Shown piece by piece: positions 46,961 to 64,000 of a stretch of 64,000 nucleotides of DNA (the first letter of the stretch is position 1; each line of letters starts with the position of its first letter). The notes below the pieces were generated by a model. That model made no database searches and was not told the origin of the DNA. It saw only the letters and a list, made by a program, of their open reading frames with translations. Source of the stretch: an uncultured virus (IMG/VR IMGVR_UViG_3300027969_000053) (Duplodnaviria; Heunggongvirae; Uroviricota; Caudoviricetes); the IMG/VR virus record IMGVR_UViG_3300027969_000053. One strand, 5' to 3'. A program made the position numbers and the translations under genes.

Positions 46961-47606
46961 AAATTTTTCTTGGAGTGATAATAGAAGAGAAGATTGGAGA
47001 GATTATGTCCGTTCTTTGGAAAATGATAATATAAGTGAAATTCTTGGAGCAATTCCATCAGGATGGAATGTACCACCAAAAAGTCATAATGAATTTGTGA
47101 TTTGGTTGATGAATAGAATTGATCCAAAATTAACTGTAGAACTTGGAGTTGATTGGGGATATTCATCTTTTATGCTTGCTTTGAATACAAAAAATGAGGT
47201 TGTTGGTATTGATTGTTTTGATATTTCAAAACATAGTTTAAGAAAAGATGATGACTATCAATTTGTTATGGACATAAAAGAAAAACTAAAACTTGATAAC
47301 TTAGAAATTATTAAAGGATATTTTGACGATGTAGCAAAAACTTGGAATAAAGAAATCAATCTTCTTCATATTGATGGTCTTCACGATTATAATAATTGTA
47401 AAAATGATTGCGATACCTGGGCGCCATTTTTGGAAGAAAGAGGTGTAGTATTATTCCACGATACTATTTCAAATCCAGATGGAGTTGGACTTTTCTTTTC
47501 TCAACTTGAACTTCCAAAAGTGAATTTTACCAATTCTTGTGGATTGGGTGTTGCTTCAAATGATGTTAAATTGATTGAAGAAATTAAACAAGTTTTTAAA
47601 CTATGA
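46953..47606 (+). CDS. class I SAM-dependent methyltransferase
   Basis: VELGVDWGYS, LLHIDGLHDY, VLFHD. Confidence 0.85.
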   Translation: MVENFSWSDNRREDWRDYVRSLENDNISEILGAIPSGWNVPPKSHNEFVIWLMNRIDPKLTVELGVDWGYSSFMLALNTKNEVVGIDCFDISKHSLRKDDDYQFVMDIKEKLKLDNLEIIKGYFDDVAKTWNKEINLLHIDGLHDYNNCKNDCDTWAPFLEERGVVLFHDTISNPDGVGLFFSQLELPKVNFTNSCGLGVASNDVKLIEEIKQVFKL

Positions 47607-48139
47607 TTAAACTTATAATCCTTGATGTGGATGGTGTTCTTACTGATGGCACCAAATATTATGATCATGATGGGAAAGTAGTTCTTAAACTTTTCTGTGA
47701 TAAGGATTGGACTGCAATTAAAAGGTTTCGTGCTATTGGAATTCCAGTTGTTTTTATAACTGGCGATCCTTATAATGAGATCATTCTTAAGAATAGAAAT
47801 CTCCCTGTTGTAGTGAATCGTGGCGAAGGATTTCATAAAGACAAAGTAAATTATCTTGCAGAAGTTCTTGATGATTACAATTGTCTTGTAGAAGAAGTTG
47901 TTTATCTTGGAGATGATCTTTTTGATTATGGTATAATGAGAGAGGTTGGATATCCTTATTGTGTGTTAAATTCACCAAGAACTCTTCAAGACATTTCTGT
48001 AGTTCTTCACTGTAATGGTGGAGAAAATGCAGTGATGTGTTTGTTTGAATATCTGGAGGATAGAGAATTGATTCCGGTTGTTCCTTATGATGAGGTAATG
48101 TCTAAAATTTATGAACTTGACTTGAAGGAAAACTTTTAA
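47603..48139 (+). CDS. KdsC-like HAD phosphatase
   Basis: LDVDGVLTDG, YLGDDLFD, GGENAV. Confidence 0.85.
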   Translation: MIKLIILDVDGVLTDGTKYYDHDGKVVLKLFCDKDWTAIKRFRAIGIPVVFITGDPYNEIILKNRNLPVVVNRGEGFHKDKVNYLAEVLDDYNCLVEEVVYLGDDLFDYGIMREVGYPYCVLNSPRTLQDISVVLHCNGGENAVMCLFEYLEDRELIPVVPYDEVMSKIYELDLKENF

Positions 48140-48810
48140 TGAAAGACATTTCTCTTTATGGGCATCTGACTATTGATACGATTCTTGACGGTAATTCTGA
48201 AAAGAAAAGTTTAGGATCAATGGCAAATGTTTGGAGATCTTTACTTGAGATTGATTCAACATTAAATATTGGACTTTCTCCAATTGATGTTGGTCAAGCA
48301 CTTGTTTATATTGATAAACTTTCAGCACAAAGGTATTCAAAAGCAAATTTAAATCTAGTTCAACACAAAGTAAAAATCTTCGAATCAAAAGTTCACCATC
48401 TAATTTATCTCAATGAAATGTCTATTCATGATTTTATTCCAAAACTGAATGGTATTATCACTGCAGATATATGTTCTGGAAAATCATTGAATAAAGATTT
48501 ACTTAAGGGTGTAGATTATCTTTTTATTTCTGATGAAGATATTGATGGCAATCTTTCAGATTACGTGAATACAATAAAGGGGTATGTGATACTTCATAGT
48601 TCATCAGGAAGCATTGTATCAAATGGAAAAGATGAGTTTTTCTATAAACTGCCTAAAGATTTAATACTGAAAGGTGTTAATGTTCTTGGTGCTGGTGATA
48701 CATTTGCGTCTTGTTTCTTATATAAATTACTAAGGAATGAAGGAAGCATCCACAACTGGATCGAATTTGCTCATTTAAAGACAACTGAAATTATTAGGAA
48801 TTCGATATGA
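48139..48810 (+). CDS. PfkB/ribokinase-family sugar kinase
   Basis: GHLTID and VLGAGDTFA. Confidence 0.78.
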   Translation: MKDISLYGHLTIDTILDGNSEKKSLGSMANVWRSLLEIDSTLNIGLSPIDVGQALVYIDKLSAQRYSKANLNLVQHKVKIFESKVHHLIYLNEMSIHDFIPKLNGIITADICSGKSLNKDLLKGVDYLFISDEDIDGNLSDYVNTIKGYVILHSSSGSIVSNGKDEFFYKLPKDLILKGVNVLGAGDTFASCFLYKLLRNEGSIHNWIEFAHLKTTEIIRNSI

Positions 48811-49964
48811 AACCAAATATTCTTGTTCCGATGGCGGGACTTGGTAGTAGATTTATTAAAGAAGGATTTAAAGTACCAAAGCAGTTAATTAATATCAAAG
48901 ACAAACATCTAATTGATATTTCGCTTGATTGTTTGAACTATGAAGATTGTAATCTAATCTTCGTGGTTAGGGATGAAACTGTTTATAATTTTCATATTGA
49001 TGAACTCCTAAAGAAAAAGTTTGGTGAAGATATCAAGATTGTTATTATTGATAAACTTACTGATGGATCTGTGAGCAGTTGTCTGTATGCAGAAGAATAT
49101 ATTGATAATGATGCGCCTCTTGTAATTCATACTCTAGATATTGAATTCCGTCCAGTATTTGATCCGCATACTATTAATAACTTGAATGCAGATGGACTCC
49201 TTTTGACATTTAAATCAAATTCTGCAAATTATAGTTATGCTGATGTTAATGAAGATGGATATGTAAAAAGAACTGCTGAAAAGAAAGCAATTAGTTCTAA
49301 TGCCTGTGTTGGTATCTATGGATTCAAAAAAGGATCCGACTTCTGCAAGTATGCAAAGGAAATGATCGAAAGAGATATTAGAACTAATAATGAGTTTTAT
49401 ATTGCACCTTTGTATAATCTTCTTATTGATGATTGTAAGAAAATCGTTACTTCGGATGTAGATAAAATGCATGTATTTGGAACTCCTGATGAGTTTCATT
49501 TCTACAAAGAAAATGTCATTCGTAAGGTTGGTGATAAACCAATTGCTATTTGCTCAGACCATTCTGGATTTGAATCAAAGGAAAAGTTTAAACATATTCT
49601 AGAAAAACACAATCTTGAGTATATTGATTTTGGAACTATCTTGAATAAGGATTGTGATTATAGTGATTATATTGCACAAGCAGTTAAAGCAATTGCTGAG
49701 CGTGATTGTGATTATGGATTTGGTTTCTGTAGAACAGGTCAAGGTGTGAATATTTGTGCTAACAAATACAAAGGTATTCGTTCAGCACTTATCTATGATG
49801 ATTTCTCTATGGAGATGGCAATCCGACATAATTGTGCTAACTTTTTTGCAATTCCTGCAAAAGATTATACTATCGAAAAAATGGATAAGTATTTGGAAAT
49901 CTGTTCTACTCATAACTTTGATGGCGGTCGTCATCAGGTTCGTATTCAGGAATTAGAAAAATGA
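48807..49964 (+). CDS. nucleotidyltransferase fused to a RpiB/LacAB isomerase domain
   Basis: PMAGLGSRF..PKQLI, NEFYIAP, FGTPDE; then SDHSG, CRTGQG, FDGGRH. Confidence 0.85.
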   Translation: MKPNILVPMAGLGSRFIKEGFKVPKQLINIKDKHLIDISLDCLNYEDCNLIFVVRDETVYNFHIDELLKKKFGEDIKIVIIDKLTDGSVSSCLYAEEYIDNDAPLVIHTLDIEFRPVFDPHTINNLNADGLLLTFKSNSANYSYADVNEDGYVKRTAEKKAISSNACVGIYGFKKGSDFCKYAKEMIERDIRTNNEFYIAPLYNLLIDDCKKIVTSDVDKMHVFGTPDEFHFYKENVIRKVGDKPIAICSDHSGFESKEKFKHILEKHNLEYIDFGTILNKDCDYSDYIAQAVKAIAERDCDYGFGFCRTGQGVNICANKYKGIRSALIYDDFSMEMAIRHNCANFFAIPAKDYTIEKMDKYLEICSTHNFDGGRHQVRIQELEK

Positions 49965-50281
49965 TTCAAGCAAATATTGTTGACTTTAAAGCAGGATGGT
50001 TTGTTGGGGACTTTGAACCATCTATTTTTAAGAATCCATTTTTTGAAGTTGCACACCATTCTCACACAAAAGGTCAACAAACTTTTCCTCATTACCATGC
50101 AGTCACTAATGAACTTAACTACATTGTAAAAGGTGAACTAATAGTATCTGGAAAGCATTTGAATGCAGGTAATATGTGGATCTATGAACCAAAGGAAATT
50201 TCTGATGTTGAGTTCTTGAGTGATGTTGATCTTATAGTAGTGAGATGGCCGTCTATTCCTTCGGATAAGTATATGGTATGA
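49961..50281 (+). CDS. cupin-domain protein
   Basis: GWFVGDFEP, HYH...E.NYIVKG. Confidence 0.75.
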   Translation: MIQANIVDFKAGWFVGDFEPSIFKNPFFEVAHHSHTKGQQTFPHYHAVTNELNYIVKGELIVSGKHLNAGNMWIYEPKEISDVEFLSDVDLIVVRWPSIPSDKYMV

Positions 50282-50745
50282 AACTGATAGCACATAGAGG
50301 TAATATTGTAGGACCTAATCCTCTAGAGGAGAATAAACTAGAATACATTGAAGCAGCAATTGCAGGTGGATATGATGTTGAGATTGATGTAAGATGGGAA
50401 GATCATCAGTTTTATTTGGGACATGATGGACCACAATATTATGTCCCTATGACTTGGTTAGTTAAAAGAAAAGATAAACTTTGGATTCATTGTAAAGATT
50501 TTAAATCTTTGAATATTTTTTCTAATAGTCCAATAGATTTTAACTTTTTTTGGCATGAAAACGATAAGTATACTTTGACTAGTAAAGGTTATATTTGGAC
50601 TTATCCTGGGCAATTATTTGAAAATAATTCTGTTATTGTAATGCCAGAAGTATTCGACTTGCAAAATATTCAAGATAATGGTACAATAGCATACAGCAAA
50701 AAATCTTTTGCTGTATGTAGTGACTATGTGGAAAAATTTAAATGA
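50278..50745 (+). CDS. glycerophosphodiester-phosphodiesterase-like protein
   Basis: IAHRGN, EN, VEIDV, LGHD, WIHCK. Confidence 0.78.
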   Translation: MKLIAHRGNIVGPNPLEENKLEYIEAAIAGGYDVEIDVRWEDHQFYLGHDGPQYYVPMTWLVKRKDKLWIHCKDFKSLNIFSNSPIDFNFFWHENDKYTLTSKGYIWTYPGQLFENNSVIVMPEVFDLQNIQDNGTIAYSKKSFAVCSDYVEKFK

Positions 50746-51353
50746 CATCTACGATTTCCCCAGTATTTAAAGAATTAAAACAATATGATAAAATTAATGT
50801 TATAGATGTTGGATCTGCAAGAGCATCTTTTTTGGTAGAATTGGAAAAATCCTTTGATCTAAAAAATGTTTATTCTATAGGAATTGATCCAATTGATTAT
50901 GGAGTAGAATCTCATTATGATAAGTTTTATCGTGTTTGTCTGGATGACGTTAAAACTCCTCAAAAGCAAATATTTTATAACGATGATCAATCCTCTTCGC
51001 TGCTTTCTTCCAAAGGTGAAAAAATGGGCTTGGTTGACATTTTAAATATCAATAGCATTATCGATGTTGATATACCAGAAAATATTATACATTTTATTAA
51101 AATAGATGCAGAAGGAAAGGATTTGTCTATTGTAAAATCTTTATCAAAACAAAATTTAAATAGAACAAAATTTATTGCAATAGAATGTCCAAATAAAATT
51201 CCAAGATATGATGGCGAATATATTAAAAAAGATTGTATTGAATATTTTAATTCTATAAATTTTGAATTTTTTTATGAATACGATACTAATATTGAATCTT
51301 GGAACAAATCAGATTTGAGTGATGTCGTTTTTATAAACAAACGAGAATTATGA
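50742..51353 (+). CDS. FkbM-family methyltransferase
   Basis: VIDVGS, FIKIDAEG. Confidence 0.72.
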   Translation: MTSTISPVFKELKQYDKINVIDVGSARASFLVELEKSFDLKNVYSIGIDPIDYGVESHYDKFYRVCLDDVKTPQKQIFYNDDQSSSLLSSKGEKMGLVDILNINSIIDVDIPENIIHFIKIDAEGKDLSIVKSLSKQNLNRTKFIAIECPNKIPRYDGEYIKKDCIEYFNSINFEFFYEYDTNIESWNKSDLSDVVFINKREL

Positions 51354-52090
51354 AAGTAGCATTATGTTTATCCGGTCAACCAAGAGTAGTTGACATTGGG
51401 TTTCAAAAACTAAGCCAATCAATTCTTCAGCACAATGATGTTGATGTGTTTATTCATACTTGGTTTGATCCTGAAAATCTTAGTACAAATTCTGTCATTC
51501 CTGGCAGAGAATCTCATAGGTTAGATCCTCAAGCAATTGATAAATTGATTCATTATTATCAACCAAAACGCATTATGGTTGAAAAACCAAAAAAGTGGTC
51601 AAAAAGATATGAGTTTCCTGATAAGGTTTTTACACATTCGCATACTTGGGCACTTGAAGTTCCTGTAGGATTGGAAGCGGCAAAAGATTATATTTGTGAT
51701 ACTACAAATAGTATGTTTTATAGTATTATGATGTCAAATCTTTTGAAGGAGCAATATTCAACAGAAATCGGAATTGAATATGATTTAGTAATTCGAAATA
51801 GAATTGACTATTCTCCTCATGTAGTGCTAAAATTGAATGAGATTCCAATAGATGATTGTACACTAATATATCAAGATCTATATCAACCTGATGGTATGAT
51901 TAGTGATTGGTTTGGTATGGGATCAACAAACACTATGAATGTTTTTTGTGGCGTATATAATCAAATAGGTCATCTCATCCGACAATCAAATGAAGTTGAT
52001 GGATATTGGTGCAATGAACTTCTTCTTAAACATCATATCAAAAATAATAAAATTAAAACAAATCCTATAGACTATCAAGTTCACTATTAA
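51350..52090 (+). CDS. glycan-related hypothetical protein
   Basis: [28 protein letters not shown]. Confidence 0.65.
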
Positions 52091-52091
52091 C

Positions 52092-53117
52092 ATGAAGAAA
52101 GCACTTATTACTGGCATTACTGGTCAAGATGGATCATATCTTGCGGATTTACTTTTGAGCAAAGGATATGAAGTTCATGGAATTATTCGTAGAAATTCAA
52201 CATCAGATTGTACTGATAGAATTAATTATCTTTTAGGAAATCCCAAAATCACTTTACATTACGGAGATCTAACTGATTTCTCAAATATTACATCTATCAT
52301 TCAAGAAACTCGTCCTGATGAGATCTATAATCTTGCAGCACAAAGTCATGTAAAAGTATCTTTTTCCAATGCACTTTATACTGCTGATGTAGATGCTTTA
52401 GGTGTTTGTCGTATTCTTGAAGCACTACGAATTCTTGGCATGATTAATACGACCAAGTTTTATCAGGCAAGCACTTCAGAAATGTATGGTCTTGTTCAAG
52501 AAATTCCTCAACGTGAAGGTACAAAATTTCATCCAAGATCTCCTTATGGTGTGGCAAAACTTTATGCTTATTGGATTACTAAAAACTATCGTGAAGCATA
52601 TGGTTTGTTTGGATGTAACGGAATTCTTTTTAATCATGAAAGTCCTCGTCGCGGAGAAACTTTTGTGACTCGTAAGATTACTAAAACTCTTGCAGAGATC
52701 AAGAATGGTAAACGTAGTCTACCATTAGAACTTGGTAATATAGACGCAAAACGTGATTGGGGTCATGCAAAAGATTATGTGGAGGCAATGTGGTTAATAC
52801 TTCAACGTAATAAACCAGATGATTATGTTGTTGCAATGGGTGAACAGCATTCTGTTCGTGAATTTGTTGAGATTGCCTGTGAACATTTTGGATTTGATAT
52901 TGAATGGAAAGGAGAGGGAATAGAGGAGGTGGCAGTCTTTAGAAATACAAATAATGTTCTTATAAAAATTAATTCAGAATTTTATCGTCCTGCTGAAGTT
53001 GATTCTCTTGTTGGTGATTCTAGTTATACTAAAAGCAGAATTGGTTGGATTCCCAGATACTCTTTTTCTGATCTTGTAACGGAAATGTGCGATAGTGATT
53101 TGGAGGCAACAAAGTGA
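52092..53117 (+). CDS. gmd: GDP-mannose 4,6-dehydratase
   Basis: [44 protein letters not shown]. Confidence 0.95.
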
Positions 53118-54043
53118 AGAAAAGGATTGTATTTTGGGTAGAAAATAAACCATATCAAACTTTTTCTTACATCTATGCTGGAATGAAAAAAGCATTTGAA
53201 AGATTGGGTTGTGAAACATATTGGTTTAGTGATTCTAATTATCCTTCAAAATTGGAGTTTGATTACTCGGATTGTATTTTTTTTGTAGATAATCAAGGTC
53301 CACTTGATTGGAATGTTCCTATTATTGATAGTGGAATTTATTTTTCTTATGATAAATTTACAAATCTGGATAAGTATCTTGATAAGGTCAAGTGTCTTGT
53401 GAATTATCGAGTTGCTGAATTCAAAAAACCAATTCCGGATAATGATAGGTATATTGAAGTTGAAAAAGGAGTTACTTTTGATACTCAAGCACCAGAACCT
53501 TATAATGTTGTTTATTTTAGTTGGGCAACTAATTTGCTTCCTGATGAAATTGATTTTGATTGGGCCAATAAACAGAGAAATGATGAATATAATTTTGTTG
53601 GTACTATTCATTCTCCCCGTCCAAATTCCAAACCCCTTCATCAAGATTTTATTGATATTGTAAAAAATAAAAATATTACATTCAATCATTATAATCCTAA
53701 TATTAATCCTGCAACTGATCAGGAACATATTGAGATTCTTCAAAAATCGATGTTTGTTCCAGATTTTAGACCACAAGAACAAAAAGATAATTGGTATGTT
53801 TCATGTCGTGTTTTGAAGGCAATTAGTTATGGTTGTCTTACTGTTTCGGATTCTTCTTATCTTAAACACTTTATTGATGATAGTCTTTTGGTTTCTGAAA
53901 ATGCTCAAGAAATATTTGATCTTGGAATGAGAAATCAGTATAATAAAGATTTAATTGTACATCAAATGGAAATTATAAAAAGAGATCATACTTATTTAAA
54001 TAGGTGCAAAGGTATTCTTCAAATCGTAGAAAATATAAAATGA
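53114..54043 (+). CDS. putative glycosyltransferase (GT-B-like)
   Basis: [17 protein letters not shown]; island context. Confidence 0.6.
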
Positions 54044-54897
54044 AAATTACAATTTTAGGTTCCAGTGGACAGATCGGTGCCTATCTTACCGAGTATCTGC
54101 GTAAAAAAGGACATGTAGTTGAAGAGTTTGATGTAGTTAATGGACCTTCACAGGATATGACCGTAATTCCTAATCAATATCTTGAAATAAAAATTAGAGA
54201 TTCTGATTTTGTATTCTTCCTTGCATTTGATGTGGGTGGATCACGTTATCTTAAAAAGTATCAACATACTTTCCAGTTCATTGATAATAATACTCGTTTG
54301 ATGGCAAATGCTTTTGGATTTCTTCAAAAGTATAATAAGAGGTTCATCTTTGCCTCATCTCAGATGAGTAACATGAGTTATTCTCCTTATGGAGTTCTCA
54401 AGAACGTTGGTGAACTGTATACCAAATCACTTAAAGGACTGATCGTTAAGTTTTGGAATGTTTATGGTATTGAGAAAGATCAAGAAAAAGCACACGTCAT
54501 CACAGACTTTATTCGTAAAGGATTTGAGACTGGTTTGATTGATATGCTTACTGATGGCGAAGAGGAACGTGAGTTTCTTTATGCTGAAGATTGTTGTGAA
54601 GCACTTGAAACCATTATGGAGAATTATACTGACTTTACCTCAGAAGATAATCTTCATATTACTAGTTACCATCCAACTAAGATTATTGATATTGCAAATA
54701 TGATTATTGGGCAATTTAATTTGATTGGTAAGTATGATATAAAACTTCAACCATCTACCGAAAAAGATAGTGTTCAGATGGATAAAAAGAATCGTCCAGA
54801 TTTATATCTTTCTAAGTGGTGGATTCCCAAAACAACAATAGATCAAGGAATTTCAAAAGTTTTTAAAAGTATGGAGAAAAATTATGTTAGCGTGTAA
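54040..54897 (+). CDS. NAD-dependent epimerase/dehydratase
   Basis: GSSGQIG, YGVLK, REFLYAED. Confidence 0.85.
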   Translation: MKITILGSSGQIGAYLTEYLRKKGHVVEEFDVVNGPSQDMTVIPNQYLEIKIRDSDFVFFLAFDVGGSRYLKKYQHTFQFIDNNTRLMANAFGFLQKYNKRFIFASSQMSNMSYSPYGVLKNVGELYTKSLKGLIVKFWNVYGIEKDQEKAHVITDFIRKGFETGLIDMLTDGEEEREFLYAEDCCEALETIMENYTDFTSEDNLHITSYHPTKIIDIANMIIGQFNLIGKYDIKLQPSTEKDSVQMDKKNRPDLYLSKWWIPKTTIDQGISKVFKSMEKNYVSV

Positions 54898-55726
54898 TCA
54901 ACTTGGCAATAATGGAAGACTTGGGAATCAAATGTTCCAATATGCTGCACTAAAAGGTATCGCACATCGTAGAGGATTTGATTATTGTATTCCCCCATTT
55001 GACCAACAAGGAATTGATAATTATGGACTTGGTGATGCCTTTAATATTAAATCTTTTACTGGTATAGCAAATCTTCCATCAGTTGGAGAACCTCATTTTC
55101 ATTACAGTGAAGAATTTCACAATACTTGTCCAGATGATGTTACTCTTGTTGGATATTTCCAAACTGAAAAATATTTCAAAGATATTGAAGACCAAATCCG
55201 CCAAGACTTTATTTTTAGAGATGAATGGATGGAACCCTGTAAGGGGTTTCTTCAAGAGTTTGAGGGACAAGAGATCGCTTTCCTTCATGTTCGCCGTGGA
55301 GATCCAAATCTAGTGGATCGTAGGGGATTTAAATGGGCATACGTGAATTGTTCCGATCAACATCCAGTTCAATCTTTGGAATATTATGAGGAGGCAATCA
55401 AGAGATTGCCAGAAGATATGCCGATACTTGTTTTTTCTGATTCAATTGAATGGTGTAAAGAACAAGAATTCTTTCAACCAGATAGATTTTTATTTTCGGA
55501 ATCAGAAGACAAATATTCAGATGGCGCTTTGGTTCCATATGTTGATTTGTGCTTGATGTCCTTGTGTGATCATGCTATAATTGCTAATAGTAGTATGAGT
55601 TGGTGGGGTGCTTGGTTGATGAAAAATCCAAACAAAAAAGTAATCGCACCAAAAATGTGGTTTGGAACAGCATATTCTCACCACATCACAAAAGACATTT
55701 ACTGCGATAATTGGGAGATTATTTGA
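54884..55726 (+). CDS. GT11 alpha-1,2-fucosyltransferase-like protein
   Basis: GRLGNQMFQYA, GYFQ, HVRRGD, IANSSMSWWGA. Confidence 0.9.
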   Translation: MLACNQLGNNGRLGNQMFQYAALKGIAHRRGFDYCIPPFDQQGIDNYGLGDAFNIKSFTGIANLPSVGEPHFHYSEEFHNTCPDDVTLVGYFQTEKYFKDIEDQIRQDFIFRDEWMEPCKGFLQEFEGQEIAFLHVRRGDPNLVDRRGFKWAYVNCSDQHPVQSLEYYEEAIKRLPEDMPILVFSDSIEWCKEQEFFQPDRFLFSESEDKYSDGALVPYVDLCLMSLCDHAIIANSSMSWWGAWLMKNPNKKVIAPKMWFGTAYSHHITKDIYCDNWEII

Positions 55727-56553
55727 TGATTTATATTTCTGGGTCTAATGGATTGATCGGAACAGAACTGACAAAAAATATTCAAAACTATATTCCAATC
55801 TCTTATAGGAATCAATATCCAGAAATAAATTTTTTATCGAATTCTACATTGATTCATTTATCTTCATCAACCACTCCTAGAAATAGTTTTGGTGAATTGC
55901 AATCATCATTTAATAGTGATGTTTTGATTCCTTTTGAATTGTTTCAAAATTATTTAAAAGTAAATTCAAATGGAAGAATTATTTTTCTTTCTACTGCTGG
56001 GGATTTACATAGTTCTGAATTTGATGTTTGGTCTAATGAAGAATCAGAACCTATTCCAAAGTCAATTTATGGCGCACATAAATTACTTTTAGAACATTGT
56101 ACAAAGTTACTTCATAGTCAATATGATTTTACGAGTATAGTTTTAAGAACTACAAATGTTTATGGTGGAAAGATTGACCCAAAAAGAGTGAATGGATTGA
56201 TTGATAAATTGATTTCAAATAATAATGAAATCGTAATAACATCAAATATTAAAACGACAGTTAATTTTATTCATATTAGTGATTTGATTAGTTTAATTTT
56301 GCAATCATTGGATGCGAATCTTAAAGGATTTAATTTATTTTTGGTTGGCAGTGAAAAATCCATTTCTATTCAGGATTTGATTGAAAAAATATCATCATAT
56401 ATTTCTCCAAATATTGTATTTAAAAATGAGAATTCAAATCCCTCATACATAAACATAGACACCTCAAAGGTGCAAAAATATCTCAATTGGAAATGCAAAT
56501 ATTCAATTGATAGTGGTATAATTAAACAAGTACAATCTTTGAATTCTTTATGA
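55726..56553 (+). CDS. NAD-dependent epimerase/dehydratase
   Basis: GSNGLIG, YGAHK, LRTTNVYG. Confidence 0.8.
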   Translation: MIYISGSNGLIGTELTKNIQNYIPISYRNQYPEINFLSNSTLIHLSSSTTPRNSFGELQSSFNSDVLIPFELFQNYLKVNSNGRIIFLSTAGDLHSSEFDVWSNEESEPIPKSIYGAHKLLLEHCTKLLHSQYDFTSIVLRTTNVYGGKIDPKRVNGLIDKLISNNNEIVITSNIKTTVNFIHISDLISLILQSLDANLKGFNLFLVGSEKSISIQDLIEKISSYISPNIVFKNENSNPSYINIDTSKVQKYLNWKCKYSIDSGIIKQVQSLNSL

Positions 56554-57269
56554 AAATTGCTATTTCATTTTTTGGGACAGGAAGTTATTTGAATTTTCTT
56601 CCTAATTGGTATACGTCCATTCATGATAATTTTCTTCCAGGTGTAGAAAAAAAGTTTATTGTATTTACAGATGGAGAGGGTGATTTTCCAGAAGATGTTA
56701 CTAAAATAGAAATAGAACATTTTGGGTGGCCTGATGTTTTTTACAAAACATTTGAAACAATCTTGAAAGCAAAAGAAATTATTTCTGAATGCGATTGGTT
56801 TATTTCTATTGATGCGGATATGATTGTTAATGGCAAAGTATCTATTGAAGAATTTATTGATGAAACCAAAGATTATATTGGAGTTCATCATCCTTGTGCT
56901 TATTTAAAACTTCCACCACACGACAAATATCCAGGATCTTTTGATGTAAATCCACTATCAAATGCTTACATCACCGAAGATATGGATACTTCTGTTTATT
57001 ATCAAGGATGTTTATGGGGTGGAAAGGTTCCTGAAATTATTGAAATGATGGAACTTTTAGATGAATGGACAAAGAAAGATATTGAAAAGAATTCTACTCC
57101 CGTTTGGTATGAAGAATCTTATTTTAATAAGTTTTTTATTACAAACAAAGAAAGAGTACATACACTTCCTCCGTCATTTGCTTATCCAGAAGACTTTAAA
57201 CAATATTGCGATTTTGAAGAAAAAATCACACATATCTCTAAAAATAATCAACAATATCATAATCAATGA
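56550..57269 (+). CDS. GT6-family glycosyltransferase
   Basis: GTGSY, VFTD, GWP, DAD, YYQGCLWGG, WYEESYFNK. Confidence 0.85.
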   Translation: MKIAISFFGTGSYLNFLPNWYTSIHDNFLPGVEKKFIVFTDGEGDFPEDVTKIEIEHFGWPDVFYKTFETILKAKEIISECDWFISIDADMIVNGKVSIEEFIDETKDYIGVHHPCAYLKLPPHDKYPGSFDVNPLSNAYITEDMDTSVYYQGCLWGGKVPEIIEMMELLDEWTKKDIEKNSTPVWYEESYFNKFFITNKERVHTLPPSFAYPEDFKQYCDFEEKITHISKNNQQYHNQ

Positions 57270-58048
57270 CTATGACTAAAAATTTATCAGTTTATTATCA
57301 TATCTGGAGTCCTGGCGGAACGGATCTTTGGAAATTGATGGTAGACGAACAACTTAAAAGAATTTATCGCAATGGACTTACGGAAAGTGCTTCTATCTAT
57401 TGCGCTATTAATGGACCACAAGCAAACCGAATTGCAGAATATATCTCCATCTATGATTGGTTAAATGTTCTTGATGTTTCAATTGATGAAAGTGAGTATG
57501 AAGGATTCACTTTAAAGAGAGCATACGAAGAGGCACATTTCAATCCAGATTTGAAAGCAGTTGCTTATCTTCATACAAAAGGCATTAGTCATATGTGTGG
57601 AGTTCGGGATCATTACTCTGATCGTAAGTTTAGAGCAGTGAATAGTTGGAGACATCAAATGGAATGGGGCATTCTTGATCGGTGGAAAGAAGCGGTAGAA
57701 AAACTTGACGAATATCAAGTTTCTGGTGTAAATTATTGTTTGGATCCTTGGCCTCATATGAGTGGAAACTTTTGGTGGGCACGGGCGGATTATCTTAAAA
57801 CTTTAATTCATCCCACTAGAGATAGATTTCCAAATGACAATAGAGATTTTGGACCAATTCAAAGAATGAATTTTGAAAAATGGATTGGACTGAATAATCC
57901 AAAATCTTTCAGTTTTTACGATGCTCCATTTAGTTATGATTTTAAAGGAATGACACCAGATGTACAACCAACACCCCCAGGAGAACCGCATTGGTTCTGG
58001 TTGTACCGAGACGACATTGAACCCTATTATAGAAAGGAAGGTAACTGA
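57266..58048 (+). CDS. glycan-related hypothetical protein
   Basis: YLHTKG, HMSGNFWWA, EKWI. Confidence 0.65.
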   Translation: MTMTKNLSVYYHIWSPGGTDLWKLMVDEQLKRIYRNGLTESASIYCAINGPQANRIAEYISIYDWLNVLDVSIDESEYEGFTLKRAYEEAHFNPDLKAVAYLHTKGISHMCGVRDHYSDRKFRAVNSWRHQMEWGILDRWKEAVEKLDEYQVSGVNYCLDPWPHMSGNFWWARADYLKTLIHPTRDRFPNDNRDFGPIQRMNFEKWIGLNNPKSFSFYDAPFSYDFKGMTPDVQPTPPGEPHWFWLYRDDIEPYYRKEGN

Positions 58049-58049
58049 T

Positions 58050-58772
58050 ATGACTTTTGGATGCTTTCATACAGTGTATGAAAATAAAAGAGCAACAGAG
58101 TTTATTTTGCAAGAGTTTAGAAAATATTATCCAGATGCTCCTTATACTTTGATTTGTGATGGTGGAGTAGATTACTCTGATCTTGCTGTAAAGTACAATT
58201 GTAAATATATTCATTCGTATATGCATATTGGCAGAAGAAATTCTGGGGATCCTTCTGGAATTTATGGATTCACAAAGGATGAAAGTCTTCATTGGATTCA
58301 TATGTTTAGGGAGGCAGCAAGACACGTTAAAGAAAATGGTGGAACACATATGATTATGATGGAAGATGATGTTCTCACTCAAGGTGAAGTGAAAATTAAT
58401 CCAATTTGGGAATGTGCTGGATTTGATGTTCCGGGAAATAAAATTTCTCCTGGTCTTTTGAAGTTTATTGAAGAAAAGTATAATGCAAAACCAAATGTTG
58501 ATTGGTATGGTGCTGGTGGCGGAACCATTTATAATATTGAAACATTTTTAGATAACTATCATAAAATCTATGATTTTATTGATTTTGATTTTGAAAATAT
58601 TCTAGAAAATATGGATTATAGATTTGGTTGGTTGGATCTTTATATGCAAATTGCTTATTTTGTAATTGGTAAACATTATTCAATTAATACAAATTTAACT
58701 GAAGTTTGGAAAACACCAAACTTTAGGGATAGTGAATTTACTCTTGTTCATGCTTATAAGGAATTATACTGA
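58050..58772 (+). CDS. putative GT-A glycosyltransferase
   Basis: ICDGG, MMEDD; island context. Confidence 0.55.
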   Translation: MTFGCFHTVYENKRATEFILQEFRKYYPDAPYTLICDGGVDYSDLAVKYNCKYIHSYMHIGRRNSGDPSGIYGFTKDESLHWIHMFREAARHVKENGGTHMIMMEDDVLTQGEVKINPIWECAGFDVPGNKISPGLLKFIEEKYNAKPNVDWYGAGGGTIYNIETFLDNYHKIYDFIDFDFENILENMDYRFGWLDLYMQIAYFVIGKHYSINTNLTEVWKTPNFRDSEFTLVHAYKELY

Positions 58773-59749
58773 TGAAAATTGCATTTATTGGACCTGGAAT
58801 TATGCCCATTCCTCCTGATGGGTGGGGGGCAGTTGAATCTTTAATCTGGGAAATTGCTTGTGAACTTGGGGAAATGGGTCATAGTGGAACAATTATTAAT
58901 GATCCAAATTTGAATGAAATTATTAAAACAGTCCAACAAGATGAGTACGATTTCATTCATTTATTTTATGATGTTTTTCACCCAATTATGGATGAGATTA
59001 AAAGGTTGTGTCCCAAATCTATAACTGCGATTAGTAGTGCTTATCCTTATGTGGATCAATTTCAATTTCATCAAAGAGATGGATATGATAAAACATATAA
59101 GTGGTTGATTGAACAAAAAAATCATTATAATTTTTGTTTGTCTGATAAAGATTTTGAAACATTTAAAAAGGGTGGAGCAGACGAATCAAAACTTTTGAGA
59201 CTTGGACTTGGTGCTCAACATAAGAATTTTAAATTTAATATTGAATGCGAAAAACCAAATAAAACCCTATATATGGCAAAAATTGAAGTTAGAAAACGTC
59301 AATGGGTCTATCAGTCAATTGATAGCATTGAGTTTGTTGGTAGATATTCTCCCACAACTACATTTGATAAACTTCATAAAAGTTATATTGGAGAGTGGAC
59401 AACAGAACAAAAACACGAAAATGTAACCAAGTATGCAAATTTACTTCTTCTTTCTGATGGTGAAAATGGGACTCCGCTCGTAATTAAAGAGGCACTTGTT
59501 TCTGGTATTGGTGTGGTTTGTTCTAAGTATGCTGCTTATGATTTGGATCATAGTCTTCCATTTATTACAGTTGTTCCTGATGATAAATTAAATGACTTGA
59601 ATTATGTGAGTAATGCAATTAAAGAAAATCGTGAAGTATCTGTGAACATGCGACAGCAAATTCATGAATATGGTGTAAATAATTTTTCTTGGGAGAATAT
59701 TGTAAAACCTTATATTCAAACTATTGAAAAATTGGAGAGTGTTCAGTGA
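58772..59749 (+). CDS. GT4-like glycosyltransferase
   Basis: IPPDGWGAVE, LSDGE..PLVIKEAL. Confidence 0.8.
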   Translation: MKIAFIGPGIMPIPPDGWGAVESLIWEIACELGEMGHSGTIINDPNLNEIIKTVQQDEYDFIHLFYDVFHPIMDEIKRLCPKSITAISSAYPYVDQFQFHQRDGYDKTYKWLIEQKNHYNFCLSDKDFETFKKGGADESKLLRLGLGAQHKNFKFNIECEKPNKTLYMAKIEVRKRQWVYQSIDSIEFVGRYSPTTTFDKLHKSYIGEWTTEQKHENVTKYANLLLLSDGENGTPLVIKEALVSGIGVVCSKYAAYDLDHSLPFITVVPDDKLNDLNYVSNAIKENREVSVNMRQQIHEYGVNNFSWENIVKPYIQTIEKLESVQ

Positions 59750-60699
59750 AAATCTGCATCATTGGTCCTGGATTTTCTCAAATTCCACCAGTTGGTTGGG
59801 GTGCTGTTGAAATTGTAATTTGGGATACAGCAAATACGTTGAAAGAATTAGGACATCAAGTAGATATTATTAATACTACTGATCCCCAACAAATTCTTTC
59901 AACAATTAATCAAATTAATCCGGATTTTGTTCACGTTCATTATGATGATTATGTCTTCTTGTATCCATATATTCAATTTCCAAAAGCAATTACAACGCAT
60001 TATGGATATCTAGAAAGACCAGAAATGTATGGTGCTTACTCATATAAAGCAAATGGATTTGCAAATATCAAACCAAATGTTTTTGCTTTGTCTGATGGTA
60101 TTAAAAGTATCTATCAAAATCAAATGAGAATTCCGGAACAAAACTTATATACTGTTCCAAATGGTGTGATTAATGAGAATTTTAAATTTACTAATACACC
60201 AGAATTTCCAAATAGATCAATCTACCTAGCAAAAGTAGATTACAGAAAGAGGCAGTGTTTATTTCAATCAATATCTTCAATTTATTATGCTGGAAATATT
60301 GTAGATGAAAGATTTGATAGAAATAAAAATTATCTTGGGGAATGGTCAAAAGAAGATTTGTATAATAATTTAACTGATTATGCGAATCTTATTTTACTCT
60401 CTGATGGTGAAGCACATCCACTTGTTTGTATGGAAGCACTCTCTGCTGGATTGGGTCTTGTGATTTCTGAATGGGCAACTGCTAATTTGGATTTAAATAA
60501 AGATTTCATTACTGTTATTCCTGAAAGTAAAATTATAGACTTGGAATATGTGTCTTTAAAAATTGAAGAAAATAGAACAATATCTTTACAAAAAAGAAAT
60601 GAAATAGTAGAGTATTCAAAAGAATTTGCTTGGAAAAAACAAATTGAAAACTATTATATTCCTGCTGTAAAACAAGTTATGCAAAAATCTAATGGATAA
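59746..60699 (+). CDS. GT4-like glycosyltransferase, paralog of the upstream gene
   Basis: IPPVGWGAVE, PNGV, LSDGEAHPLVCMEAL. Confidence 0.8.
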   Translation: MKICIIGPGFSQIPPVGWGAVEIVIWDTANTLKELGHQVDIINTTDPQQILSTINQINPDFVHVHYDDYVFLYPYIQFPKAITTHYGYLERPEMYGAYSYKANGFANIKPNVFALSDGIKSIYQNQMRIPEQNLYTVPNGVINENFKFTNTPEFPNRSIYLAKVDYRKRQCLFQSISSIYYAGNIVDERFDRNKNYLGEWSKEDLYNNLTDYANLILLSDGEAHPLVCMEALSAGLGLVISEWATANLDLNKDFITVIPESKIIDLEYVSLKIEENRTISLQKRNEIVEYSKEFAWKKQIENYYIPAVKQVMQKSNG

Positions 60700-61489
60700 A
60701 AACAAATCTACCTACAAACTTCAAGGAATTGGTCCAATTTATTACATTAATCTTGATGGACAACCAGAAAGAAAACAATATGTAGAAGATCAATTTGAGT
60801 ATTGGGAAATTGAAAATTACACTCGTATTTCTGCTTATGATGGTCGTAATGATGATTTAAGTGATATTATATCTGGTCGTTATCCAGATAATATGACTTC
60901 TGGTGAGATTGGGTGTGTCACCTCCCACCTTAAAGCAATCAAGCATTGGTACGAAACAACAGATAGTCCATATGCAATTATTATGGAAGATGATGTTGAT
61001 CTGCAACTTGTAAAGAATTGGGATTTTTCTTGGAAAGATTTTTACTCATTGATTCCCTATGATTGGGATGTAGTTCAACTTGCTATTATTTGTACTGGAC
61101 CTTTACATATCAAACTTCATAAAAGATTTGTAAATAACTTTTCTACTGCCGCTTATATGATTAATCGGCATCACGCAGAAAAACTTTTAAAGTTTCATAT
61201 TCGGGGTGATAAGTATAAACTTGATAATGGATGCAAACCAAGAGCGGTTGCAGATGATCTAGTTTATAATTCTGGAAATACTTATAGTATTCCTTTACTT
61301 CTTTATAAAATTCAATTGGGTTCTTCTATTCACCCAGAGCACGTTGATATTTTTCACAAATCAAGTCACGATGGTCTCTTAGAATTTTGGCAACAGAAAG
61401 GGGCAGGATTGAATATTCGGGAACTGATGGATTATGATCCTTATCTTGGTAGAATTACTGAAAATGTTCCAGAACAAAGTAACACTTGA
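60692..61489 (+). CDS. GT25-family glycosyltransferase
   Basis: YINLD...ERK, GEIGCVTSH, IMEDDV. Confidence 0.85.
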   Translation: MDKNKSTYKLQGIGPIYYINLDGQPERKQYVEDQFEYWEIENYTRISAYDGRNDDLSDIISGRYPDNMTSGEIGCVTSHLKAIKHWYETTDSPYAIIMEDDVDLQLVKNWDFSWKDFYSLIPYDWDVVQLAIICTGPLHIKLHKRFVNNFSTAAYMINRHHAEKLLKFHIRGDKYKLDNGCKPRAVADDLVYNSGNTYSIPLLLYKIQLGSSIHPEHVDIFHKSSHDGLLEFWQQKGAGLNIRELMDYDPYLGRITENVPEQSNT

Positions 61490-61541: not shown

Positions 61542-61751
61542 ATGACTGTAACAACCAATGAGCGCGGGCAAAATAATATGTGGGCACTTGAGCCAAAAGT
61601 TTATATTTCTGATGAAGATGCAATCAAATATGGAATTAAAACTTATGCCGAACGTGCAGAGCTTGCTAATGGAAAATTTGCGATGCTTGGATTTGTTGCC
61701 GCAATTATATCTTATGCGACAACAGGACACCTCTTTTTTGGTGTAATCTAA
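61542..61751 (+). CDS. hli: high-light-inducible protein
   Basis: AELANGKFAMLGF. Confidence 0.9.
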   Translation: MTVTTNERGQNNMWALEPKVYISDEDAIKYGIKTYAERAELANGKFAMLGFVAAIISYATTGHLFFGVI

Positions 61752-61837
61752 TGGGAGAAGCAATCTTTACCATCGCAAGCATTGCCTTCTTTGTGCTTCT
61801 TTCACATTCTATCAATCAACTTTCAGAAACTTACTAA
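61751..61837 (+). CDS. 28-aa hydrophobic peptide between the hli genes
   Basis: TAATG coupling; MGEAIFTIASIAFFVLLSHSINQLSETY. Confidence 0.5.
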   Translation: MGEAIFTIASIAFFVLLSHSINQLSETY

Positions 61838-61850
61838 CGGAGAAACAAAA

Positions 61851-61970
61851 ATGAAATTCGGATTTACCCCTGAGGCAGAACTTCTTAATTCTCGCCTCGC
61901 AATGCTTGGATTTGTAATCGCAGTTGGCACTTATCTCGCCACTGGGCAAATTCTGCCTGGAGTATGGTGA
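61851..61970 (+). CDS. hli: high-light-inducible protein
   Basis: MKFGFTPEAELLNSRLAMLGF...TGQILPG; GGAG Shine-Dalgarno. Confidence 0.92.
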   Translation: MKFGFTPEAELLNSRLAMLGFVIAVGTYLATGQILPGVW

Positions 61971-62009: not shown

Positions 62010-62042
62010 ATCCTCACTCTAAATAAGGGTGAGGATTTTTTT
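62010..62042 (+). terminator. intrinsic terminator after hli
   Basis: ATCCTCACTC/GGGTGAGGAT plus T-run. Confidence 0.75.
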
Positions 62043-62130: not shown

Positions 62131-62164
62131 TTGACAGGACCCAGGGACCGTGCTATGATAAATA
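62131..62164 (+). promoter_or_regulatory. overlapping sigma70 and late promoters for psbA
   Basis: TTGACA-17-TATGAT overlapping ATAAATA(62158-62164). Confidence 0.75.
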
Positions 62165-62199
62165 AGTCAGGAAACGAAGACAAATCTTTACGTTTCTTA

Positions 62200-62318
62200 A
62201 CCTTCTGTAACCGAGATCATCAGAAGTAAAGCGTCTCTCATATCCGTACTGGAGGGTGGTACGGAAATAACTGTAACATTCAGTTCCCCCTGAATTCTTA
62301 TTTACCCTTTAACGAAAA
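62200..62318 (+). ncRNA. structured psbA leader, probably the PhotoRC-II-type motif
   Basis: CTTCTG/CAGAAG, GAGA/TCTC, TCCGTAC-TGGAGGGTG-GTACGGA, ATTCAG/CTGAAT; family match is from recall, not a search. Confidence 0.6.
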
Positions 62319-63398
62319 ATGACTGCTACAATTGCTACACGTTCTGATAATAATGTCTGGGAACAGTTTTGTTCTTGGATTACTTCTACCGACAACCGTC
62401 TTTATGTTGGTTGGTTCGGTGTTCTACTTATTCCAACAGTTTTAACTGCAACCATCTGCTTTATTCTTGCTTTTATTGCGGCACCTCCAACAGATCTGGA
62501 CGGAATTAGGGAAGCAGTATCTGGTTCTCTAATGTATGGCAATAACATTATTAGTGCTTCAGTAATTCCTAGTTCTAATGCCATAGGATTGCATCTATAC
62601 CCAATTTGGGAAGCACAATCTCTGGAAGAATGGCTATACAATGGAGGCGAATATCAACTTATTGTTTTCCATTTTATGATTGCAATTTATGCTTATATGG
62701 GTCGTGAATGGGAACTTTCATATAGGTTGTCAATGCGCCCTTGGATTTGTGTTGCTTATAGTGCTCCTGTTGCTGCTGCTACTGCTATCTTTCTTGCTTA
62801 TCCAATTTCACAAGGTTCATTTTCTGATGGATTTCCTTTGGGAATTTCGGGCCAATTTAATTTTATGTTAGTCTTTCAGGCAGAGCATAATATTCTTATG
62901 AATCCGTTTCATATGTTAGGTGTTGCTGGTGTTTTTGGTGGCGCTTTAGTTTCTGCCACTCACGGATCACTCGTAACAAGTTCTCTTGTGAGAGAAACTA
63001 CTGAGGAGGAAAGTCAAAATAAAGGATATAAATTTGGTCAAGAACAAGAAACTTATAATTTAGTTGCCGCACACGGGTATCTGGGTCGTCTTCTGTTTCA
63101 ATATGCATCCTTTAATAATAGTCGTTCATTGCACTTTGTGATGGCTGCACTACCTGTTATTGGTATTTGGTTTGCTGCTTGTGGAATTTTTATGTCTGGT
63201 TTTAATCTCAACGGTCTAAATTATGTTCATAGTATCCAAGATAACCAAATGAGAACAATTCCTACTTGGGCGGACGTATTGAACCGGGCAAATTTGGGAA
63301 TTGAAACAATTCACGAAAGAAATAGCCATCAGTTTCCATTAGATTTGGCATTTTCTGCTGGTTCGGAAATTGCACTTATTGCACCTTCAGTTGGTTGA
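62319..63398 (+). CDS. psbA: photosystem II D1 protein, divergent and intronless
   Basis: Colinear with D1 to A344; Y161, D170, E189, H190, H198, H215, H272, H332, E333, H337, D342 present. Confidence 0.97.
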
Positions 63399-63424
63399 TA
63401 AAAAACTGAATATATGATAAATGA

Positions 63425-63451
63425 AGAGACCCATCAAAGGGTCTCTTTTTT
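63425..63451 (+). terminator. intrinsic terminator after psbA
   Basis: AAGAGACCC/GGGTCTCTT plus T-run; CTAAATA follows. Confidence 0.8.
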
Positions 63452-63486: not shown

Positions 63487-63939
63487 ATGAAAGAATTAGA
63501 AAGGAAATGTAGAGACTGTGGTTTAATTAAATCAATTGCTGAATATTATAGAACAACTTATAAGAAAAAGGAATGTTATCATACTAATTGCAAATCTTGT
63601 TATATTAAAAGAAATCAGGAAAGATATGACCCAATAAAACAAAGAGATAATAATTTAAAACGTTTATATGGAAAGCAATTTGGAATTGATGAATATAATA
63701 AACTTCTAGAGAAGCAAGATTTTAAATGTGCTATATGCAAAACTACTGAAATTAAGGGTAGAAAAACTGGTAGAGGGGGGCAGATAGAAGTTTTTTATGT
63801 AGACCACGATCATAAGACGGGAAAAGTTCGTGGATTGCTTTGTAATATATGCAATAGAACTATGGGTTATGTTGGTGAAAATTCTGGAGTGTTGGAAGAA
63901 ATGATTAAATACCTACAAAAACACCAACCCACACCTTGA
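63487..63939 (+). CDS. EndoVII-motif homing endonuclease (F-CphI-like)
   Basis: CAIC...VDHDHKTGKVRGLLCNICN; N-terminal CxxC pairs; directly downstream of psbA. Confidence 0.85.
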   Translation: MKELERKCRDCGLIKSIAEYYRTTYKKKECYHTNCKSCYIKRNQERYDPIKQRDNNLKRLYGKQFGIDEYNKLLEKQDFKCAICKTTEIKGRKTGRGGQIEVFYVDHDHKTGKVRGLLCNICNRTMGYVGENSGVLEEMIKYLQKHQPTP

Positions 63940-64000
63940 CACCACCCCCCAAAAACTGCTATAATACTCACAACGTCGCAAACACATTATGAAACAACTC

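Follow-up and report, generated by a model that had tools for sequence, protein, structure and literature searches.

How far can a virus alter the D1 protein of photosystem II (PSII) and still retain the residues required for water oxidation? This question is raised by a psbA gene at positions 62319–63398 (plus strand) of a 64,000-nucleotide stretch of DNA from an uncultured virus (IMG/VR record IMGVR_UViG_3300027969_000053); the whole stretch was analysed and is called the window. Few known proteins are as conserved as D1: in the 70 distinct cellular sequences used for comparison, 236 of 344 positions are invariant. The D1 encoded in the window (P0001) changes 36 of these 236 positions, all within residues 1–344, and would represent a natural experiment on how PSII can be retuned at its primary donor and its QB site. 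A first-pass annotation, made from the DNA letters only, had listed 17 substitutions at normally near-invariant sites next to a full set of Mn-cluster ligands. It had proposed a distinct viral D1 with altered charge separation, QB binding or turnover, or alternatively a divergence driven by homing endonucleases. The explanation that agrees best with the comparisons, and which we consider probable, is a working psbA of a T4-like cyanomyovirus, coding for a D1 variant that evolved inside viruses, was changed in two neighbourhoods, and acquired a recent mosaic at its 3' end.

Identity and lineage of the viral D1

The gene is a stop-free and intron-free reading frame for an intact D1 of 359 residues, on record from a single JGI/IMG metagenome contig of 126,460 bases. 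P0001 matches the Photo_RC profile (PF00124) with an E-value of 2e-88 over profile positions 1–258 of 260, and its residues 1–358 align without gaps to residues 1–358 of solved D1 chains (7yq7_A, E-value 8e-192). Standard D1 numbering is therefore valid for P0001. Judged by this gapless alignment at approximately 75% identity, the fold is already fixed. All 15 residues that had been listed as kept are indeed present (D61, Y161, D170, E189, H190, H198, H215, H252, S264, H272, H332, E333, H337, D342, A344). P0001 contains the Mn4CaO5 ligands D170, E189, H332, E333, D342 and the carboxyl terminus of A344, plus the second-sphere residues D61, H337 and E65; this set is also invariant in alignment A1 and in the lineage alignment A2. 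Equally present are YZ (Y161) with H190, the PD1 ligand H198, and the iron/QB residues H215, H272, H252 and S264. Q165 is invariant in alignment A1; variation occurs at positions 328 and 331. P0001 retains V205 and G282; M205 and C282 are presumably markers of divinyl-chlorophyll and bear on the idea of a Prochlorococcus host, and the compared sets contained no Prochlorococcus D1. A344 is followed by a C-terminal extension of 15 residues, which CtpA would remove. Directly after the predicted cut stands Phe345, shared by 10 of the 29 lineage sequences and by one of the 70 other metagenome proteins, and absent from all 70 cellular D1s. The GC content at third codon positions (GC3) of psbA is 23%, and the GC content of the window is 33%; with its low GC3 in an AT-rich window, psbA resembles the phage in composition.

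The 17 substitutions as well as Phe345 are real when compared with the majority residue of the cellular D1s. Sixteen of these positions are invariant in 70 of 70 cellular sequences, and G80 is found in 69. The cellular D1s are 85.6–99.7% identical to each other (median 91.4%), and P0001 is 72.9–76.8% identical to them. In 46 ordinary viral D1s, the number of changes at the 236 cell-invariant positions has a median of 6.5 and a range of 3–42. Loci with partial or intron-split matches (29), proteins outside a length of 355–362 residues, and exact duplicates (which reduced 234 to 216 sequences) were left out of these counts. The first-pass annotation had considered that its substitutions might be common among cyanophage D1 proteins, and this is true for about half of them. 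Among the 46 ordinary viral D1s, G80A occurs in 7, H195N in 11, W278L in 6, F300L in 12, N303V in 3, A336S in 6 and N338Q in 6 sequences, and P111E was found in another divergent viral group (L070, L073, L074). In contrast, V58T, P66A, G138S, G164S, M172F, T179Q, M214T and F255L do not recur; each of them, and also F211V, is absent from all 46. G138S, G164S, M172F and T179Q, together with S291F and A294G, are missing in all of the 186 non-lineage sequences.

A search of 5.8 billion proteins yielded relatives of P0001 at 94, 91, 84, 82 and 81% identity. The 90%-identity clusters of this lineage comprise 25, 85, 27, 41, 1 and 3 members (JGI/IMG, ENA, Logan, NCBI), which carry generic names only; no organism-named protein is among them. 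The lineage-specific DNA signature was detected in 15 IMG/VR stretches. In a second IMG/VR scan, made with alignment A2, the matches listed were almost all ordinary D1 and included one lineage locus and three loci at 79–80% identity; they served only as additional loci. No cellular D1 above 78% identity to P0001 was present among the 597 candidates listed from one-genome-per-species collections. In a tree of 107 rows, which was calculated by a quick search, the lineage appears as a 24-row clade with a support of 88 in the SH-like approximate likelihood ratio test (SH-aLRT). A core of 17 rows, which holds P0001, has an SH-aLRT value of 99. The clade contains no cellular member, and P0001 does not cluster with any cellular D1 in this tree. 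The lineage was found only in DNA of viruses or metagenomes. Ratios of nonsynonymous to synonymous substitutions (dN/dS) of 0.051–0.091 were determined within the lineage for six pairs with unsaturated dS; four pairs involving L007 were saturated. These low ratios indicate that psbA has been maintained under purifying selection and is not decaying. The lineage thus holds its new states under purifying selection, with the residues of water oxidation untouched. The proposed distinct viral D1 is borne out by the monophyly of the lineage, by the lack of a cellular member among the sequences found and by purifying selection, and the possibility of a neutrally decaying gene is contradicted by the open frame and the dN/dS values. 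On the basis of these comparisons, we regard the variant D1 of a virus-only lineage as real and well supported.

At least three other viral groups (L079/L052/L053, L070/L073/L074 and L008–L013) change 23–42 cell-invariant positions, and every ligand is kept. When the four divergent groups are compared, P0001 standing for its own lineage, P111, H195, T286, S291, T292, M293 and M331 are altered in all four, and A100, W278, A294, F300, A336 and N338 in three. M172, M214, I259 and F211 are each altered in one other divergent group, where the replacement residues are different. A part of the listed substitutions is thus a recurrent viral pattern, with convergence, shared ancestry or recombination as candidate causes. 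The L079 group carries F158L, M172L, T286A and M214Q. T286A is taken by us to be a marker of the low-oxygen form D1'. F158L and M172L are named as PsbA2 substitutions in the accessible part of PMC12107152.

The surroundings of ChlD1 and QB

Comparison within the lineage delimits three blocks of changes on the plus strand. The ChlD1/YZ block (codons 157–179, positions 62787–62855) consists of V157I, I160A, G164S, M172F and T179Q. The QB-pocket block (codons 211–278, positions 62949–63152) consists of F211V, M214T, I248L, F255L, I259L, F274V, L275M and W278L, and the helix-E block (codons 288–294, positions 63180–63200) of L288C, S291F, T292M, M293S and A294G. G164S, M172F and T179Q each occur in 18 of the 29 lineage sequences and in none of the 186 others. 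The six core QB changes are all present in 26 and all absent in three of the 29. Elsewhere they were found in no cellular and no ordinary viral D1, and in 1–4 of the 70 other metagenome proteins. The helix-E block always accompanies the ChlD1/YZ block. This is also the case for P0014, P0177 and P0178, which are natural chimeras that combine the ChlD1 and helix-E blocks with a canonical QB block.

The sequences branching below the lineage clade form a graded series. P0060 contains A100Q, I160L, S291A and A294S. P0079 and P0085 gain P111E, F211A, W278L and a change at N303, and V58T is present in P0079. The full QB block is gained by P0037, namely F211I, M214T, I248L, F255L, I259L, F274V and L275M. 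The P0018 group gains P66A, V83I, A336S and N338Q. P0021 and L007 gain V157I, I160A, G164S, M172F, T179Q and H195S plus L288C/A, S291F and A294G of helix E, and the core finally gains L120M, G122A and G138S/A. Three changes of residue size are paired: position 157 became larger and 288 smaller, 160 smaller and 291 larger, 164 larger and 294 smaller. These pairs may represent compensating contacts between helices C and E near YZ. Read as a course of events, the series would begin with a co-inherited block that makes the QB pocket more aliphatic (F211V/I, M214T, I248L, F255L, I259L, F274V, L275M, W278L). In a later step, the D1-specific tuners of ChlD1 would have been altered (M172F, T179Q), and the same step would have changed the residues beside YZ (V157I, I160A, G164S) along with the matching face of helix E (L288C, S291F, A294G). 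Both rebuilt neighbourhoods would have been conserved by the lineage since then.

The roles of several of these residues are known from other D1 proteins. M172 is located 3.7–3.8 Å from ChlD1 and lowers its excitation energy (by approximately 10 meV or 73 cm-1), T179 is the hydrogen-bond donor to the water that ligates ChlD1 (approximately 4 meV), and both stabilise ChlD1+ relative to ChlD2+ (excerpts of PMC7368266 and PMC12107152). According to the same excerpts, the cellular low-oxygen PsbA2 contains M172L, and its ChlD1–PheoD1 charge-transfer state is blue-shifted. A PSII mutant T179H exists, in which ChlD1 is affected (bioRxiv 10.1101/2024.11.21.624785, as excerpted). F255 makes the largest attractive contact with the head of QB, and the quinone tail is contacted by F211; in a simulation, atrazine touches M214 and F255 (excerpt of PMC4030317). 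The structural premises of the first-pass annotation, which had placed T179 next to ChlD1 and F211 and F255 in the QB pocket, agree with the accessible parts of PMC7368266 and PMC4030317. The changed residues include two that calculations single out as D1-specific ChlD1 tuners.

The excitation energy and the cation stability of ChlD1 would be shifted in P0001, because the contact of the Met sulphur is lost. Gln179 may act as a ligand of the ChlD1 water or directly of the Mg. Since four aromatic residues of the QB niche have turned aliphatic, the affinity for quinone and for inhibitors would be altered, and it is plausible to assume that QB affinity, exchange, redox tuning and inhibitor binding have changed. 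Among the readings of the substitutions, a functional retuning of ChlD1 and QB has the best support. The viral D1 would be inserted into the host PSII during infection, like other cyanophage D1s. It would retain the whole water-oxidising apparatus (Mn4CaO5 ligands, YZ–H190, D61/E65, A344 processing site) and the residues H215, H252, S264 and H272, which serve the iron and the hydrogen bonding of QB. The balance of forward electron flow versus charge recombination would be altered during the short life of the infected cell. A further-reaching idea, which we find possible rather than probable, is that phages evolved a PSII photochemistry of their own. The lineage would have built, stepwise and under selection, a D1 that no cell contains, with a retuned ChlD1 (M172F, T179Q, possibly with a Gln–Mg or Gln–water ligand) and a QB niche serving as an exchangeable co-adapted module. 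Such a 'disposable' reaction centre for the hours of infection would differ in recombination, reactive oxygen species and QB turnover, and would be insensitive to inhibitors. In a literature search, no paper naming T179Q, M172F, F255L, M214T or L275M in PSII was found among the matches listed. Likewise, no residue-level account of the lineage was found; the retrieved papers on freshwater viral psbA are surveys by polymerase chain reaction. The accessible part of PMC8891191 reports lake psbA clusters and gives no residue-level account.

P0001 was compared with several known forms of D1. It resembles the canonical cyanomyovirus D1 (S-PM2, S-RSM4, S-RIM8, S-CREM1) in the T4-like context, the hli genes beside psbA, the PhotoRC-II leader, the full ligand set, E130, and the length of 359 residues with a C-terminal extension. 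It differs in sequence: the 512 matching GenBank phage records all lie in the band of 60–80% identity (best value 76.6%), the 36 changes contrast with the median of 6.5, and neither the QB block nor the ChlD1 block occurs in any of the 46 ordinary viral D1s. Rogue or 'super-rogue' D1 (ChlF) and sentinel D1 lack several ligands of the Mn cluster. P0001 is like them a strongly divergent PF00124 member; its assignment to these atypical groups 1 and 2 was rejected because every Mn-cluster ligand is present. G80A, F158L and T286A are, as we assume, the marker set of D1', and P0001 shares G80A and T286A. A further likeness to D1' (PsbA2 of Thermosynechococcus, 'group 3') is an altered residue 172, which is M172L there (excerpts of PMC12107152 and PMC7368266). 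However, P0001 keeps F158 (invariant-like in alignment A2), contains Phe instead of Leu at position 172, and does not cluster with cellular D1, and for these reasons a classification as D1' was likewise rejected. Neither T179Q nor the QB block was found in the 70 cellular D1s, a set that was unchecked for D1' forms. Herbicide resistance of D1 maps to positions 211, 219, 251, 255, 264 and 275, with S, Y and F as replacements. Positions 211, 255 and 275 are also altered in P0001, but contain V, L and M, and S264 and V219 are unchanged. Compared to single selected herbicide mutations, the QB changes of P0001 constitute a fixed, ancient and co-inherited block of at least six in a virus.

The 3' end of psbA and its homing elements

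The DNA of L247 (identical to L005) shows no difference from the window over codons 26–298 (819 bases). All 34 base differences are found in codons 299–359 (log10 P of about -25 for a uniform spread), where they form three patches on the plus strand with identical stretches between them. Patch A (codons 299–314, positions 63213–63260) differs from L247 in 20 bases and eight residues, including N303V. It begins at the codon-298 site, where the relative L235 bears a group I intron. Six further stored proteins, encoded on other contigs, contain the patch-A peptide, an occurrence that argues for a circulating segment and makes an assembly artefact not likely. Patch B (codons 326–336, positions 63294–63326) extends across H332/E333 and contains 10 base differences. 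Six of its seven changed codons are synonymous; the sole residue change is at position 328 (Ile in the window, Leu in L247). Patch B spans the intron site near codon 334 that is used in L242 and L249. It is located inside the stretch homologous to the 60-bp substrate of the nuclease F-CphI, which corresponds to codons 325–344 of S-BM4 psbA (supplementary Table S3 of PMC6083498, seen as an excerpt). This substrate and the window differ at about four of ten positions, a by-eye count for sequences of different base composition and a nuclease that is only 42% identical. Patch C (codons 347–354, positions 63357–63380) is situated in the C-terminal extension, which would be cleaved off, and differs in four bases and three residues. 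The mosaic accounts for N303V among the 17 listed substitutions and for F302Y, Q304H, G311M and V313T, which had not been listed; Leu300 is common to L247. The similarity between the window and L247 stops at position 63419, 21 bases past the psbA stop codon. No donor of the patches was found among the loci compared, the best matches being 87.6–90% identical.

A free-standing gene of the endonuclease VII type (63487–63939, plus strand; PF02945, E-value 5e-21; phrog_2633, E-value 1e-31) starts 89 nucleotides past the psbA stop codon. Its product is a homologue of F-CphI of S-PM2, with 41.9% identity across 97% of its length. Among 24 related loci compared, an F-CphI-like gene follows psbA only in L246 and L235. 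A promoter-like site with 12 of 12 consensus matches (63936–63965, plus strand) overlaps the last codons of the nuclease gene. Similarity to relatives resumes here, as positions 63935–64000 match L243, L251, L244/L001 and L175. The site may mark the right-hand edge of the nuclease insertion, beyond which the nuclease-less relatives are again similar. At the same place after psbA, L247 has an unrelated open reading frame (ORF) resembling a homing endonuclease gene (1087–1797; phrog_655, E-value 1e-8). The next ORF of L247 (1837–2460) matches phrog_3704, which is annotated as 'ferredoxin'.

In relatives of the lineage, psbA carries group I introns near codons 90, 298 and 334. The psbA genes of L249, L251, L252 and L243 are interrupted by approximately 880 nucleotides between codons 185 and 187, and no Rfam match at gathering score was obtained for this insertion in L249, L251 and L252. 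Near the 3' end of its psbA, L251 also shows two group I intron matches side by side. Zeng, Bonocora and Shub (2009, as cited in PMC6083498) reportedly described a 'collaborative homing' of the S-PM2 psbA intron and the free-standing F-CphI. The window and its relatives resemble this system, as an endonuclease VII-type gene directly follows psbA and group I introns occupy the codon-334 site in relatives. In contrast to S-PM2, psbA of the window is intron-free and codons 326–336 are mostly silently recoded relative to L247. The last 60 codons would be a recent mosaic, generated by gene conversion around the two intron-insertion sites and the adjacent F-CphI-like homing nuclease, and the recoding of patch B likely affects nuclease recognition. 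The homing-endonuclease pressure suggested in the first-pass annotation accounts for these last 60 codons, where the patches lie beside intron sites and the nuclease gene, and leaves the lineage-defining changes unexplained. The 3' end would be a clean natural example of homing elements that reshape an essential photosynthesis gene without breaking it.

Expression context, rival explanations and neighbouring genes

The window encodes the gp45 clamp, the gp44/62 loader, RegA, the gp43 polymerase, UvsX, gp41, MazG and ribonucleotide reductase. This gene content assigns it to a T4-like cyanomyovirus. No cultured cyanophage has a DNA polymerase more than 70.9% identical to that of the window, and the nearest viral record (G001, 40.5 kb) has no psbA. 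Two hli genes on the plus strand precede psbA. The first (61542–61751; phrog_178, E-value 1e-29) codes for a high-light-inducible protein; the second is located at 61782–61970 (phrog_178, E-value 7e-18; PF00504, E-value 1.8e-4). The gene order of glycosyltransferase family 25, hli, hli and psbA is kept in L002/L250, L006/L245, L251, L235 and L242. A terminator-like hairpin (62010–62036, plus strand; 11-pair stem, then a T run) closes the hli unit. It is followed by a promoter-like site for psbA (62131–62159, plus strand; TTGACA, 17 nucleotides, TATGAT, with a TG in front of the second hexamer; 11 of 12 positions agree with the consensus). The psbA leader contains a PhotoRC-II RNA motif (62188–62278, plus strand; Rfam RF01717, 60.4 bits at a gathering score of 39, E-value 3e-9), 41 nucleotides before the start codon. 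The motif also precedes psbA in L006, L016, L017, L022, L025, L235, L245, L246, L249 and L251. A second terminator-like hairpin is found after psbA (63423–63448, plus strand; 10-pair stem, then a T run). Judged by these elements, psbA is an expression unit of its own. Note that the promoter-like site and both hairpins are consensus matches only, and that promoter-like sites are no commoner in this region than in shuffled sequences.

Four RNA runs (X10, X18, X19, X20) were compared with the locus. In the lake metatranscriptome X10, three contigs with a depth of 2.8–3.8 are identical to positions 62383–62556, 62679–62851 and 62921–63085 and cover codons 22–80, 121–178 and 201–256. They give a weak hint of psbA expression. 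X18, X19 and X20 contained only short pieces or pieces matching at 90–95%. In the four runs no RNA contig covers the hli or nuclease genes, and these gaps allow no conclusion. At least a part of the stretch is present in 20 rows, which come from 17 studies and are mostly labelled as freshwater or lake metagenomes. At least half of the sampled words were found in five runs, labelled freshwater (four) or aquatic (one); one run with a share of 0.45 is labelled marine. A lake habitat deduced from such labels is a lead only, and the carrier of this psbA is an uncultured and probably freshwater T4-like cyanomyovirus.

Could the phage simply have copied the ordinary D1 of an unsequenced host lineage? 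Cyanophage D1s usually sit within the diversity of their hosts (bioRxiv 10.64898/2026.07.15.738324, as excerpted), and the species-genome comparison comprises only the 597 candidates listed. These candidates do not exceed 78% identity, however, and P0001 is about equidistant (73–77%) from all 70 cellular D1s. Together with the lack of an organism-named protein among the cluster members, the viral or metagenomic origin of the intermediates and a codon composition that matches the phage (GC3 of 23%), this makes host tracking unlikely. We regard it as unlikely, too, that the divergence of the whole gene is a by-product of introns and homing nucleases, caused by target-site escape and co-conversion and devoid of photosynthetic meaning. 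The psbA genes of the lineage are full of mobile elements, namely the introns near codons 90, 298 and 334 and the insertion of approximately 880 nucleotides between codons 185 and 187. Moreover, the site downstream of psbA can hold either of two different nuclease genes, and the differences between the window and L247 are confined to patches at those sites. For escape, however, silent changes suffice, as illustrated by the six synonymous codons of patch B, and the lineage-defining replacements concern cofactor-lining residues (codons 157–179 and 211–278) far from known insertion sites. They have also been kept among relatives that are nearly saturated at synonymous sites (dN/dS 0.05–0.09).

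The viral D1 might also act as a brake: it would assemble, but slow or divert the reduction of QB towards recombination or cyclic flow, and in this way reshape the energy metabolism of the host. The four aromatic residues of the QB niche that became aliphatic (F211V, F255L, F274V, W278L), among them the largest attractive contact of the QB head (PMC4030317, as excerpted), would be compatible with such a function, as would the change of both residues that stabilise ChlD1* and ChlD1+. Nevertheless, strong purifying selection has conserved H215, H252, S264 and H272 along with all residues of the donor side. This conservation is easier to reconcile with a complete working electron path, and we judge a brake to be improbable. 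Least credible is an origin by neutral decay or as an assembler chimera, for which we see hardly any room. The gene stems from a single metagenome contig, and the 3' mosaic could in principle result from an assembler switching between co-occurring strains. Yet the frame is open, dN/dS is 0.05–0.09 and the leader motif is conserved, so that decay is already largely refuted. An artefact is contradicted by the patch-A peptide in six proteins on other contigs, by the three exact contigs in the independent RNA run X10, and by the presence of the lineage in many data sets.

Several points weigh against the preferred explanation of a working, virus-evolved D1 with two changed neighbourhoods. All functional effects, including the direction and size of the spectral, redox and QB shifts, are deduced from residue identities, and the proposed contacts of helices C and E from residue sizes. 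Other viral D1 groups are equally or more divergent (up to 42 changes); divergence alone is therefore not special to the lineage of P0001. There is a bias in the background sets: for the metagenome proteins, the best 120 of 8000 word-sharing candidates were taken, and the cellular set includes few marine picocyanobacteria and only a thin sample of freshwater picocyanobacteria. The species-genome search covered at least 604 stretches, and a host with such a D1 could remain unsampled. The graded series depends on one 'quick' tree, in which several forks have a support below 95, and its branch order may be blurred because psbA recombines. The contigs of an RNA library can be contaminating DNA, and the stretches covered in X10 are the same in the L247-type allele. 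Finally, no second PF00124 gene (psbD) was found in the window or in nine related viral records (G002–G010), all of which are fragments of at most 58% completeness and say nothing firm on a D2 of the phage's own.

If the preferred explanation of a virus-evolved, working D1 holds, the natural chimeras, which carry the ChlD1 block without the QB block or the reverse, would be ready-made constructs for dissecting the two neighbourhoods. Along with the intermediates of the graded series, they could be used for spectroscopy and for engineering tolerance to herbicides or photodamage. The lineage would also bear on the share of lake primary production that proceeds via virus-designed reaction centres.

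The remainder of the window contains further mobile and accessory genes. The large subunit of ribonucleotide reductase is encoded in two ORFs (30244–31959 and 32687–33781) with an intein-splicing match at each break, and an ORF for a GIY-YIG endonuclease (32019–32693) is located between them. The region 30244–33781 resembles a 'fractured gene' with a split intein. Three other nuclease-like genes, also free-standing, are found at 7025–7618, 25330–25980 and 38154–38621 (minus strand); two have NUMOD3 motifs, and the one on the minus strand is of the SegE-type GIY-YIG class. With these additional genes, the phage genome is rich in homing elements. An ORF of 145 residues in the replication gene block (7671–8108) matches Tad3, an inhibitor of type I Thoeris (PF25185, E-value 1e-41). 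Directly upstream of the hli-psbA region lies a sugar and lipopolysaccharide island of approximately 17 kb (44442–61489). It encodes a cytidylyltransferase, several members of the GDP-mannose-dehydratase/epimerase family, a methyltransferase and glycosyltransferases of families 11, 6, 4 and 25. An SLH-domain protein (41320–42207) and a ferritin-like protein (42285–42719) are also encoded in the window.

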